Source: Candidatus Hodarchaeota archaeon (lineage in GTDB: Archaea > Asgardarchaeota > Lokiarchaeia > Sigyniarchaeales > SOKP01). From it: a DNA stretch of 64,000 nt. The stretch lies in contig JBHLJY010000009.1 in NCBI GenBank assembly GCA_048887225.1, positions 27,205 through 91,204 of the forward strand, read 5' to 3'. Shown piece after piece: positions 6,164 through 9,600 of the stretch. The position numbers and the translations under genes are program-made. The notes below the pieces were generated by a model. That model had not been told where the DNA came from, did no database searches, and saw only the letters and a list, made by a program, of their open reading frames with translations. Position 1 is the first letter of the stretch, and each line of letters begins with the position of its first letter.

Positions 6164-6430
6164 TTATGTGCTCATCAATCTAAACAAAAGTGAACTATGA
6201 GGAATAAAAAATTCATCTTTACGCTTGATAACGACTGTATGAAAATATTCAGCCAATCCAAGGAATCCACGGATTACGCTCTCATCCTCCTCAAATTTGA
6301 AGATCACATTCGCAATCGATGAGCCTGCGTTAAAAGTAACCTTCTCATATACTCTCTCGTCAATTAATGGGATTTTCAATTCATTAACTATTTCATATAC
6401 TCTTTTAATGAAAAGTTCTTTCTTTGCCAT
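6164..6430 (-). CDS. hypothetical protein (88 aa)
   Basis: ATG-started ORF with globular composition; no recognised motif. Confidence 0.65.
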   Translation of the reverse strand: MAKKELFIKRVYEIVNELKIPLIDERVYEKVTFNAGSSIANVIFKFEEDESVIRGFLGLAEYFHTVVIKRKDEFFIPHSSLLFRLMST

Positions 6431-6741
6431 AAGTTTTTAACACCATTTAAATACAAATATTAACGATTATCTAATTTTGATAAATTAATAAATAACCGAT
6501 TTTATAAGAATTATTATAAACTATTTATTTAATAATTTATAATATTATGTATTTTTAATCTTTTTCTTCAGATTTGAGAAACACTTGAAATAGAGAAATT
6601 TTGGTAAAAATATGAATATGAATAAAAATATATATACATGTTAATATAATAAAAATATAAGGAAAATATACTAGTATATGAATTAATCTATTCTTTGTAA
6701 AAAAATATATTTTATAAAACATTAGTCGATTTGATCGAACA

Positions 6742-7407
6742 GTGGTGTCAGAGAAGAAGAAAATAAATCGTGTCATTAGTTTCTTGAAAAAAGGTTTATC
6801 AGGATTAGCTGATGAATTAGAAGGAACTGTTGAAGGAATCAACGAATTTATAAAATCCTTATCAAAAGCTCAGAAAGATCTTAAAGAAATACCCGCAGAA
6901 GGCGAAGTTCAAACAGTGAGTACATCATCTAAGAAAGTTGCTGCTACTCCTGGCGCGGCAAAAACTGCAGCCGCTAGTACTTTATTTACTTTATTAAGTG
7001 GTCCTTCTGAAGGTGAACAAGTAAGTCCAACTCCCACAGCTGCAGTTGCAGCTCCTAGTGATATGGCTAAACCATCAGGTGGTGGACCTCCAAAAGCTCC
7101 TTCAATTGGTGGACCTCCAAAGGCTCCAGCGAAAGCTAGTCCTCCTTCTCGCGGGAGTGATCTACCTCCTGCTCCTAAACTTCCTCCAGGTGCAGGAGGA
7201 GGTACTGGTCCGCCTAAAGCCCCTGCTGCATTTGGTGCTTATGCAAAAAGAGCTCCAGCCCCTGCGGGTGGTGGACCTCCAAGTGCCACTGGGATGCCAT
7301 CAGCTCCGACTGCAACAACAGCTCAAGTAGGTGGGGGATTAGGTTCACTAAGGGATGAGATGTTAGAGGAACTAACTCGTTTAAAAAAGATAATGAGAGG
7401 AGAATAA
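6742..7407 (+). CDS. Pro/Ala/Gly-rich protein with N-terminal coiled coil and C-terminal WH2/VASP-like helix
   Basis: N-terminal amphipathic helix, four GPP(K/S)A repeats, C-terminal SLRDEMLEELTRLKKI; GC-richer than the flanks. Confidence 0.7.
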   Translation: MVSEKKKINRVISFLKKGLSGLADELEGTVEGINEFIKSLSKAQKDLKEIPAEGEVQTVSTSSKKVAATPGAAKTAAASTLFTLLSGPSEGEQVSPTPTAAVAAPSDMAKPSGGGPPKAPSIGGPPKAPAKASPPSRGSDLPPAPKLPPGAGGGTGPPKAPAAFGAYAKRAPAPAGGGPPSATGMPSAPTATTAQVGGGLGSLRDEMLEELTRLKKIMRGE

Positions 7408-7597
7408 AAACCATAAGATTATTATGATTTCTTTTTCTATATATTACCTCTAAATCAATAGAGTTATCGGTTTTCTCTTTTGATTTTTTTAAGTTATAAG
7501 CAAATATATTAGGATAAAAAATTGTTTGTATAACATTAAAAAATAAAATTTAAGATATTTATAGAATTAATCAAACTGAATCATTTGATCTGATCAT

Positions 7598-8713
7598 ATG
7601 GGTAATCCTACTATTGTTTTGGACATTGGTCAATTTTCCACGAAAGGTGGTTTTGCAGGGGAAGATTATCCAAGTCAAGTGTTTTTTACTATAGTTGGGA
7701 AACCAAAATATCACGATCTTGAAGGACAGTACGGTGATCGTGAGCAAGAATTGTACGTTGGTGACGAGATTCAGTCTCTTGGATTATATAAAATACATTC
7801 ACCTATTCAAAATGGAGCTATTGTTGATTGGAACTATTTTTCTAAAATTTTAGATTATATATTTTATAGTTTAAGAGTCGATCCCACTCTTGTTAATGTG
7901 CTATTTGCCGTCCATCCATTGTTCCCTAAAAAAGATTTAAATAGGATTTTTGAACTATTCTTGGAACATTATCAATGTATGGCTTTTTATCCTGTAATGG
8001 ATTGTATGTTAACGCTATATTCAGGTGGATTTCAAACTGGTTTAGTTGTTGAAATTGGAGATAGTAGTACTAGAATTGTTCCTATTTATGAAGGATTCAA
8101 ATTAGATCACCCAATTAAAATTTTAGATATTGGAGGTAATGTTTTAACTCGACATTTGGAAATGCTAGTCGCATCAATAGGTTTTCCAGTTGATACGTCG
8201 ATAAGAAAGGATTTGGTAAGAGTATTAAAAGAAAAGGCGTGTTTTGTATCTTTAGATTATAATGAAGATCTTAAGAGAGCTGAACACTATTCGAAGCAAT
8301 ATTCTTTACCAGATGGATCAACAATTTCTCTTTCTAAGGAAAGATTCATGATTCCGGAAGTTTTATTTAAACCATCCTTAATAAACTTAGAGTTTTCTTC
8401 GCTACCAAGGGCCATCATGGAAGTCATCGATTTATGTGATTTAGATATCCGTTCTGATTTATTAAATAACATTTTTTTAACAGGAGGTTCTTCAATGTTT
8501 CCTAATCTCAAATCTCGGATTTATAGCGAGCTAGAATTAGAATTAGCAAGACAGAAGAAAAAAAGTCAAGGGATAAGAATCATCGCGCCGAGGGAAAGAA
8601 CTTTTTCAGTTTGGGTAGGAGGTTCAATTTTAGCAATGATTCCAGAATTTACTAAAAATTGGATAACGCGTTCGAAATATTTTAAAGAAGGAATCCCTGA
8701 TAATCTATTATAA
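7598..8713 (+). CDS. actin-family protein (divergent Asgard actin-related protein)
   Basis: VLDIGQFSTKGGFAGED, YVGDE, IVPIYEG, LKEKACFVSLDY, YSLPDG, ERFMIPEVLFKP, LTGGSSMFP, SVWVGGSILA align colinearly with actin. Confidence 0.95.
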   Translation: MGNPTIVLDIGQFSTKGGFAGEDYPSQVFFTIVGKPKYHDLEGQYGDREQELYVGDEIQSLGLYKIHSPIQNGAIVDWNYFSKILDYIFYSLRVDPTLVNVLFAVHPLFPKKDLNRIFELFLEHYQCMAFYPVMDCMLTLYSGGFQTGLVVEIGDSSTRIVPIYEGFKLDHPIKILDIGGNVLTRHLEMLVASIGFPVDTSIRKDLVRVLKEKACFVSLDYNEDLKRAEHYSKQYSLPDGSTISLSKERFMIPEVLFKPSLINLEFSSLPRAIMEVIDLCDLDIRSDLLNNIFLTGGSSMFPNLKSRIYSELELELARQKKKSQGIRIIAPRERTFSVWVGGSILAMIPEFTKNWITRSKYFKEGIPDNLL

Positions 8714-8826: not shown

Positions 8827-9198
8827 TTGGAAAAACTTCCTGAAAATAATATTAATAAATCACCTCTCATGAAGAAATATTACAAGCCGAGTTATGCCTC
8901 AATGTTTAATAGAATCAAAAGTATAGACGCACCAGTAAAAAATGATTTAATTATTGCGTTATTGGATGGTAAATGGCATAGCGAAAAGGATTTAATTAGA
9001 TTAGCAAAAAAACAACAACATAATTATATAGGTCCTGTTTTACTCGGAACTATGATTAATTCATTAAATCATATGATTAAAAATAATTACGTCGAAAAAC
9101 AGATTATAGATGGCGAAATGTATTATAAAATTTCTGATAATTACGTAGGTCTTACGAGAGCAGCTTATACTAAATACAACTTCAATGTAGAATTTTAA
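8827..9198 (+). CDS. winged-helix-like protein, paralog 1
   Basis: IALLDGKWHSEKDLIRLAKK...YVEKQIIDGEMYYKISDNYVGLTRAAY; near-colinear with the next ORF. Confidence 0.65.
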   Translation: MEKLPENNINKSPLMKKYYKPSYASMFNRIKSIDAPVKNDLIIALLDGKWHSEKDLIRLAKKQQHNYIGPVLLGTMINSLNHMIKNNYVEKQIIDGEMYYKISDNYVGLTRAAYTKYNFNVEF

Positions 9199-9234: not shown

Positions 9235-9600
9235 ATGGAACCCTTTGATGAAAAAAGATTTAATATGTCAACATTGATTAAAATTCAATTTAAACCTGAA
9301 TATGCTAATATGTTTAAAAAAGTTAGGGATATAAGGGCTCCTATTAAAAATGAGATAGTTATGGCTCTCCTTGACGGTAAATGGCATTCTGAAAGAGAAT
9401 TAATAACTTTCGCTAAAAAAAAATATAATTTTATTGGCCCTCTTACGTTGGATAGTATGGTTAATTCTTTAAATACAAACATAAATAATAATTTTTTAGA
9501 AAAGCGAATAGACAACGAAAGGACTTTTTATAAACTTTCTGATAATTATATCGGATTAACGAGGGCAGCATATACAAAATTTAGGTACATTATTAAGTAG
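9235..9600 (+). CDS. winged-helix-like protein, paralog 2
   Basis: MALLDGKWHSERELITFAKK...FYKLSDNYIGLTRAAY; tandem duplicate. Confidence 0.65.
   Translation: MEPFDEKRFNMSTLIKIQFKPEYANMFKKVRDIRAPIKNEIVMALLDGKWHSERELITFAKKKYNFIGPLTLDSMVNSLNTNINNNFLEKRIDNERTFYKLSDNYIGLTRAAYTKFRYIIK

Follow-up and report, generated by a model that had tools for sequence, protein, structure and literature searches.

Known membrane-bound actin assembly factors are built from an anchor, a spacer and an actin-binding peptide, and the WH2 motif consists of an amphipathic helix, a non-helical linker of ~5–6 residues and an extended LKK(T/V) segment. Bacterial division tethers (ZipA, the FtsZ C-terminal peptide, and the C-terminal membrane helices of FtsA and MinD) combine an anchor, a long disordered proline-rich linker and a short conserved terminal contact element, and the MIM1 motif of ESCRT-III proteins has the pattern (D/E)xxLxxRLxxL(K/R), in which the central arginine is key. 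Among the Asgard archaea, the actin regulators described so far are mainly profilins and gelsolins, according to a report on the subject (bioRxiv 10.1101/2025.11.30.690169), and in the accessible parts of that report and one other, WH2-like motifs of the LKKT type are described solely between gelsolin domains (PMC9433394; bioRxiv 10.1101/2025.11.30.690169). Lokiactin is present in all Asgard classes, and L. ossiferum carries it with three actin-related protein (ARP)-like paralogues, as reported in PMC9834061. Here we analyze a 64,000-nucleotide stretch of a Candidatus Hodarchaeota archaeon genome (assembly GCA_048887225.1, contig JBHLJY010000009.1, positions 27,205 to 91,204), the whole of which is termed the window, and in particular a gene whose 221-residue product, PRO, was originally predicted to be a WH2- or VASP-like partner for the actin-family gene that begins 190 bp downstream on the same strand. 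PRO represents an undescribed, strongly conserved Asgard-specific family, and in our judgment there is an even chance that, as its sequence features suggest, this family is a flexible tether in which an anchor and a spacer carry a helix that docks onto a conserved cytosolic partner.

Judged by its relatives, the PRO open reading frame (ORF) is a real and strongly conserved gene: among 5.8 billion proteins searched, 189 homologues reached E ≤ 0.01, the 120 best of which, those listed, all have E ≤ 1e-45, and an alignment of 28 class-level homologues shows little or no variation in the last 25 residues. The named homologues are all called hypothetical and originate from metagenome-assembled Asgard genomes, and when 1.84 billion cluster representatives were searched exhaustively, 28 matches were recovered. 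The GPP(K/S)A units and the LPPAPKLPP segment named in the original prediction are present and conserved in the 28-sequence alignment, as are the N-terminal helix, a VSTSSKK...AKTAAASTLFxLLSG block, the full NLPPAPKLPP segment and an FAKRP site, and the number of GPPKAP units differs among the aligned proteins. Distant relatives, 30–45% identical to PRO, retain the same plan with changed C-termini, for example SIRNEMLSALGDLKKVFKK or GLRNEMMAEIKRIKEIFET. No Pfam family matched PRO at E ≤ 10, and no longer protein containing its C-terminal 42 residues was found at E ≤ 0.01, which is weak evidence. The ESM Atlas gave no usable match to the C-terminal part and, for a membrane form of the family, gave matches of only 0.82–0.83, under the level that counts as more than a lead. 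No description of the family was found in the literature on Asgard actin regulation, although supplementary tables such as the Lokiactin co-immunoprecipitation list could hold relevant data; the accessible text of one study describes polyproline motifs as widespread in Asgard proteins and does not describe this family (PMC8410842), and WH2, WASP and VASP go unmentioned in the accessible text of a structure-based survey of Asgard proteins (PMC12962969).

What kind of protein is PRO? An AlphaFold2 model built on a 19-sequence alignment contains helices at residues 2–48 (predicted local distance difference test, pLDDT, ~90), 72–85 (~60) and 200–218 (87–92), with the remainder disordered, and the predicted template modelling score (pTM) of 0.22 indicates that the protein has no globular fold. 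The N-terminal helix, disordered Pro/Gly/Ala linker and C-terminal helix that had been predicted are borne out by the ORF check and by this model, the expected C-terminus is present in the translation, and we agree that PRO contains no long polyproline runs. On the model, the N-terminal helix is probably an oligomerizing or anchoring coiled coil. The 13-base repeat GGTGGACCTCCAA occurs in the window as exactly the three copies foreseen, at 7081, 7108 and 7270 (0 of 100 shuffles contained any match), and these copies code for GGPPK/S units of the spacer, in which the G+C content is 0.54–0.58 versus ~0.3 in the surrounding region. The boundaries of each segment are given in Table 1.

The C-terminal helix reaches well beyond the close relatives of PRO. 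The full-length PRO profile matched 235 of 400 Asgard genomes, and a 29-position motif profile, built on an alignment of 17 divergent C-termini, matched 327 of the 400, among them 80 of the 90 high-quality genomes, mostly once per genome; families f13 (0/12), f19 (0/7), f16 (0/5) and f28 (0/3) gave no match to it. The motif consensus is Φ-R-x-E-M-L-x-E-L-x-R-L-K-x-Φ-Φ, and we define the family by this consensus, preceded by a disordered spacer and lying no more than 15 residues from the C-terminus, as in PRO. Across the 17 divergent sequences the residue class is kept at 12 of the 16 positions from 203 to 218, and the four variable positions fall on a single stripe of the helix. Such heavy constraint, with variation confined to one stripe, suggests that a conserved partner encloses most of the helix, in a groove or a bundle. 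When the Loki-type family is compared with the membrane forms by profile–profile alignment, just the last 28 residues align (probability 98.7%, E 2e-16), and for this reason the helix can be regarded as a terminal module attached to a variety of N-terminal parts.

Most other Asgard families have the motif at the end of single-pass or multi-pass membrane proteins. The f6 form is an ORF of 301–347 residues with one N-terminal hydrophobic segment, a Gly/Pro-rich spacer and the ending ..SSLQSEMLAEMERLKALMSGD (22 of 30 loci, the other eight being cut or unreadable). Examples from f3, f12, f4, f14 and f31, one per family, all combine membrane segments at the N-terminus with a helical region and a spacer (5/5); one of them has two hydrophobic segments and the others one, and their spacers are Glu/Pro/Ile-rich, Thr/Pro-rich or Pro-rich. 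The single f29 protein sampled has 572 residues and nine hydrophobic segments, and the f7 and f18 forms are soluble proteins of 231–240 residues. Since the composition of the tract is not conserved, being Glu/Pro/Ile-, Thr/Pro- or Gly/Pro-rich by family, the proline-rich tract of PRO is most simply read as a spacer. In the membrane forms, basic residues follow the hydrophobic segment as read from the sequence, and because basic residues flanking a membrane segment mark its cytoplasmic side under the positive-inside rule, the spacer and helix would be cytoplasmic. The motif was also observed in two other settings. A second motif protein of the source genome (genome G000, contig C20, L138:1252-1857(+); 201 residues) has the motif in its interior (GSLREAMLVELERLRRLMNGD), ahead of a Cys-rich domain of ~85 residues (CPxC...CCDC) that has no Pfam match, and a 349-residue relative (P0145) joins a Ras-family GTPase domain to two tandem motif copies with a polyproline run between them.

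We hypothesize that an N-terminal module anchors or oligomerizes the proteins of this family, that a disordered spacer of ~110–150 residues would provide reach, and that the conserved amphipathic C-terminal helix of ~20 residues would dock onto a conserved cytosolic partner. A transmembrane anchor would serve as the N-terminal module in most Asgard families, such that the helix is presented at the inner membrane face. In the class to which the window belongs and in a few others, a soluble coiled-coil-like helix would take the place of the membrane anchor, and a neighboring 88-residue protein, orfC, may take over an anchoring or adaptor role for the soluble form. Tethering and docking are functions that we infer from architecture, conservation, distribution and gene neighborhoods, which are themselves observed.

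The role proposed for orfC follows from the observation that the soluble Loki-type form co-occurs with orfC by family, which would be expected if orfC supplies what the membrane anchor supplies elsewhere. Orthologues of orfC are 40–89% identical across the lineages compared, and a search returned 392 homologues, none of them named and none with a Pfam domain. Its predicted domain has the order α-β-β-α-β-β-β (pLDDT 91.5), to which no fold could be assigned by Foldseek against the PDB (best E 0.31) or by a VIA-align scan of 48,161 chains (best Z 4.5). The gene adjoins PRO in 71 of 80 close loci and in 9 of 16 distant loci, with orientations that vary in the distant set. It is present in ten multi-genome families that have a full-length Loki-type match, including (full-length PRO profile, then orfC) f1 (117/134, 121/134), f22 (14/14, 13/14), f11 (16/19, 16/19), f2 (4/4, 4/4), f20 (3/3, 3/3) and f18 (4/6, 6/6), and it is missing from f4 (0/31), f29 (0/22) and f31 (0/12), in each of which the one sampled protein is a membrane form.

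Several observations weigh against the tether model or its orfC component. Within f6, orfC occurs in a single genus, g80, which also has the membrane form; f7 has a soluble form without orfC; and in the cultured strain MK-D1, a relative, orfC lies ~92 kb away from PRO. Related genomes are moreover non-independent observations in the co-occurrence counts, and orfC has no recognizable fold or family, so that its role is guessed from co-occurrence. The conserved neighbors of the membrane forms include ribose-5-phosphate isomerase A (RpiA) and tRNA intron endonuclease, which are housekeeping genes and uninformative on function. Finally, with five of its seven heptad positions conserved, the helix could just as well mediate homo-oligomerization.

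This last point bears on the hypothesis, which we consider quite unlikely, that the C-terminal helix serves self-association, forming a short coiled coil or bundle like the VASP tetramerization helix that clusters PRO or pairs it with a second motif protein of the Cys-rich or GTPase type. The restriction of the variable residues to one stripe accords with such an element, the presence of the motif in another protein encoded by the source genome, and of two tandem copies in a GTPase fusion, fits helix–helix pairing, and the commonest Pfam match in a wider alignment was a weak one of coiled-coil type to DUF948 (35 of 61 members, best E 0.015). However, the hydrophobic spacing of the helix, 3-4-1-3-3-3-1 as read from the sequence, is not a clean heptad, and the charges conserved in distant lineages (R204, E206, E210, R213 and K215) would better suit a fixed heterologous partner. 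AlphaFold2 left the C-terminal helix unpacked against the N-terminal helix, as reflected in the pTM already quoted, although a monomer model cannot show oligomers. The VASP_tetra profile (PF08776) matched the genome weakly at four places (best E 0.009) and did not match the PRO locus, and the search did not bear out the resemblance to the VASP tetramerization helix noted earlier. Ena/VASP proteins (EVH2, PF08776) are like PRO in uniting an oligomerizing helix, a proline-rich region and a short helix of actin-binding type in one small protein, but the order of the parts differs, and PRO has no EVH1 domain and no long polyproline runs.

An alternative hypothesis, possible but unlikely, is that the family uses its C-terminal helix, as an ancient peptide that binds actin by a WH2-related mechanism, to recruit or assemble Lokiactin, mostly at the membrane. 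The Loki-type protein would in that case act as an oligomeric factor of the VASP/WASP type, soluble and working with orfC beside the ARP gene. The arrangement R204-x-x-M207-L208-x-x-L211 followed by L214-K215-x-Φ217 is kept in all 17 divergent sequences and resembles the WH2 pattern, in that the first half of the helix conforms to R-x-x-(L/M)-L-x-x-(L/I) and L-K/R-x-hydrophobic comes next. Like the WH2 proteins WASP/WAVE, WIP and thymosin-β4 (PF02205), PRO has this short amphipathic helix after a proline-rich tract, and the order of anchor, spacer and peptide recalls that of the membrane-bound assembly factors. An invariant peptide, furthermore, requires a very conserved partner, and Lokiactin is highly conserved.

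Profile searches gave no support to a WH2 identity. The WH2 profile matched neither PRO nor anything else in the genome at E ≤ 10, in a search that scored 13 candidates, and a Pfam scan of 61 family members matched 65 families, of which the 25 listed do not include WH2. The motif profile, compared with all PDB chains at E ≤ 10, recovered no WH2, thymosin, VASP or ESCRT(-III) chain, and its five matches were chance-like and all to a streptococcal M-like peptide. Between helix and LKK the linker of PRO has two residues, three fewer than in the WH2 consensus, a shortness that had been conceded from the outset, and AlphaFold2 predicts a single unbroken helix at 200–218 that runs through LKKI, in a monomer model in which a bound state is not seen. 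The second lysine of LKK is variable (K in 10 of 17, with LKAL, LRTL, LKEI or LREI in other families), and the 12 constrained positions exceed the single face that a WH2 helix uses. The spacer is not proline-rich in every lineage, and the profilins of Loki and Odin do not bind polyproline, according to PMC8410842. The WH2-like motifs of Asgard gelsolins sit between gelsolin domains, whereas the PRO helix belongs to a stand-alone protein. By sequence profile, PRO falls outside both WH2 and VASP_tetra, and the WH2/VASP label is not supported by the tests run.

The distribution of actin genes adds evidence on both sides. The source genome has four actin-family genes, of which the one on contig C5 (440 bits) can be assigned as Lokiactin on the basis of its score and of its 69–99% identity to close orthologues across the phylum. 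In three families, f16, f19 and f10, the best actin is just 51–54% identical to Lokiactin, and all three are without the motif (0/5, 0/7 and 0/1), as an actin partner would predict; yet f13 (0/12), f8 and f5 also lack the motif and have a Lokiactin that is 67–71% identical. The actin gene next to PRO was correctly recognized as actin-family, with a full-length PF00022 match, and its best PDB match is 'HC1 actin' (E 6e-87), but at 285 bits versus 440, and 41% identity to the Lokiactin of the same genome, it is one of the three non-Lokiactin paralogues, a gene complement that parallels the one described for L. ossiferum. Among 61 genomes sampled, the adjacent-actin type (~40–43% identical to Lokiactin, ~295 bits) was found in six of seven f1 genomes, including the source, and in one other; the best matches to it in Helarchaeota, Odinarchaeia and CR_4 genomes are merely 40–43% identical, and that in MK-D1 48%. 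Because the motif is far more widely distributed than this actin type, the adjacent ARP-like actin cannot be the general partner of the helix.

Gene order leads to a similar limit on the proposed actin module. The 80 close loci share the order orfC (−), PRO, actin, a small gene of 120 codons and topoisomerase IA (−), and an ARP-like actin follows PRO in 75 of them, two of the five misses ending within 500 bp of PRO. The gap between PRO and actin is under 500 bp in just 22 of the 75 loci, and a PIG-L family gene (PF02585) lies between them in 46. This deacetylase gene (248 residues; e.g. L002:6800-7543) is missing from the window, so that direct adjacency of PRO and actin is the minority arrangement. 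Outside the close set, actin is nearby in 1 of 16 distant loci (Helarchaeota, Odinarchaeia, CR_4, MK-D1 and others), and in MK-D1 PRO lies ~100 kb from the actin paralogue mentioned above. Twenty loci with membrane or soluble forms, drawn from ten other families, had neither actin (0/20) nor orfC (0/20) within 8 kb on either side, and the conserved neighbors there are RpiA, a T2SSE-type ATPase and tRNA intron endonuclease. Among homologues the helix motif is conserved, its linkage to actin holds only in the window's own family, and the tests run do not support a module of PRO with the adjacent actin.

The profile search also bears on a further hypothesis, that the C-terminal helix is a MIM1-like motif binding an MIT domain, of Vps4 or another protein, and thereby linking the tether to the Asgard ESCRT system. 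As in ESCRT-III proteins, the amphipathic helix of PRO lies at the C-terminus behind a flexible linker, which in PRO is disordered and contains proline, and the spacing M207-x-x-E210-L211-x-x-L214-K215 corresponds to L-x-x-R-L-x-x-L-K/R. At the position of the key arginine, however, the 17 sequences have Glu (14) or Ala (3) and never a basic residue, PRO has no ESCRT-III core, no ESCRT genes were seen in the neighborhoods examined, and the motif profile found no ESCRT-III chain, all of which make a MIM1 role very improbable. A helix partner other than actin, the helix itself or an MIT domain holds what remains once these three possibilities are given their shares, and is moderately probable. 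In overall plan the family proposed as a tether resembles the bacterial division tethers, which likewise join an anchor to a short, conserved contact element at the terminus through a long Pro-rich linker that is disordered; no sequence relationship exists between them, and the Asgard helix has four conserved acidic residues, which a membrane-targeting helix does not.

Table 1 Positions of PRO, its segments and its neighbors in the window
Feature	Position	Strand	Description	Basis
PRO gene	6742..7407 (stop codon included)	+	GTG start; 221 residues; helix, spacer, helix; ends GGGLGSLRDEMLEELTRLKKIMRGE	ORF, homologues, alignment, AlphaFold2
PRO N-terminal helix (predicted)	6745..6885	+	residues 2-48; heptad-like hydrophobic spacing (read from sequence)	AlphaFold2; conserved in two alignments
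PRO short conserved helix (predicted)	6955..6996	+	AKTAAASTLFxLLSG, residues 72-85	alignment; AlphaFold2 (pLDDT ~60)
PRO Pro/Gly/Ala spacer (predicted disordered)	6997..7338	+	GGPPKAP units, NLPPAPKLPP, AKR(A/P) site, three GGTGGACCTCCAA repeats	alignment, AlphaFold2
PRO C-terminal docking helix (putative)	7339..7395	+	residues 200-218, LGSLRDEMLEELTRLKKIM; motif in most Asgard genomes	alignment, AlphaFold2, motif profile
orfC	6164..6430	−	88-residue α/β protein, transcribed divergently from PRO; most widely conserved neighbor of the soluble PRO form	
Actin-family gene	7598..8713	+	ARP-like paralogue	PF00022, residues 4-365, 291 bits (full-length match)
Tandem paralogous gene 1	8827-9198	+	123 residues; no Pfam match	neighborhood comparison
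Tandem paralogous gene 2	9235-9600	+	121 residues; no Pfam match	neighborhood comparison

The sequences flanking the PRO gene (33946-34608 on contig C9) were also inspected. Orthologues start at the same position with GTG or TTG, and the protein opens MVSKE... The 5' leader (window 6700–6741, compared over 78 related loci) is conserved as TTAGAGGAATTGA(G/T)TA(G/A)AAC followed by GTG or TTG, with a GAGG ribosome-binding site ~12–14 nt ahead of the non-ATG start. As read from the sequence, a TTTATA box lies ~25–30 nt 5' of the PRO start, T-rich stretches lie 3' of its stop codon, and a second promoter-like (TATA-like) TTTATA is present at ~7559–7566, ~35 nt before the actin start, and from these elements PRO and the adjacent actin gene probably have separate promoters. 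A scan for promoters and terminators of bacterial type found nothing exceeding shuffles, with models that are ill-suited to archaea. The 8-mer ATTTGATC occurs just 5' of both start codons and was considered as a control element common to the two genes; it was rejected, as TTGATC is found upstream of actin in 1 of 75 related loci, and its copy ahead of PRO is a variant of the conserved leader TTAGAGGAATTGA..AAC. Directly 3' of the ARP-like actin, most related loci conserve one copy of the ~120-residue gene.

Several features of orfC were observed in the related genomes. A second paralogue (142 bits) is encoded in the source genome (G000, contig C1:382994-383254(+)), and many related genomes likewise have two orfC matches. 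In at least eight related genomes (L063, L033, L030, L060, L055, L025, L035 and L020) a clean insert of 30–33 nt follows codon 8 (for example L063:716-790(-), L033:5626-5700(-), L020:5590-5668(-) and L025:445-522(-)), and the copy in the window is uninterrupted. Wherever the reading frame was printed the insert holds an in-frame stop codon. It forms a hairpin whose stem shows compensating substitutions between genomes, and the flanking exon sequences pair together (z-scores of −3.2, −2.8 and −2.0, with +0.1 for L025), such that the insert resembles an archaeal mini-intron of the bulge-helix-bulge type, here within a protein-coding gene. In twelve genomes (L016, L013, L011, L002, L018, L044, L021, L068, L062, L037, L008 and L045), ATT, ATA or ATC stands in place of the orfC ATG, 5–9 nt past a GGTG ribosome-binding site, and the codons for PKRELFIKR are kept, which suggests that orfC uses non-canonical start codons in many genomes.

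One question is how the Asgard cytoskeleton and other cytosolic machines attach to the membrane, and the PRO family bears on it. The family is Asgard-specific, occurs in about four fifths of the genomes searched, usually in single copy, and its soluble and membrane-anchored forms share one helix. Whatever its partner, that helix is a conserved, short and easily synthesized handle for pull-downs in cultured strains. Should the partner not be actin, the family would represent another conserved and undescribed Asgard system of membrane recruitment. Should it be actin, the family would bear on the origin of regulated, membrane-linked actin assembly before eukaryotes; found almost throughout the Asgard archaea, it would rank as the first actin-binding protein of archaea beyond profilins and gelsolins, the first membrane–actin linker in archaea, and a possible forerunner of the eukaryotic assembly factors that combine a proline-rich region with WH2.

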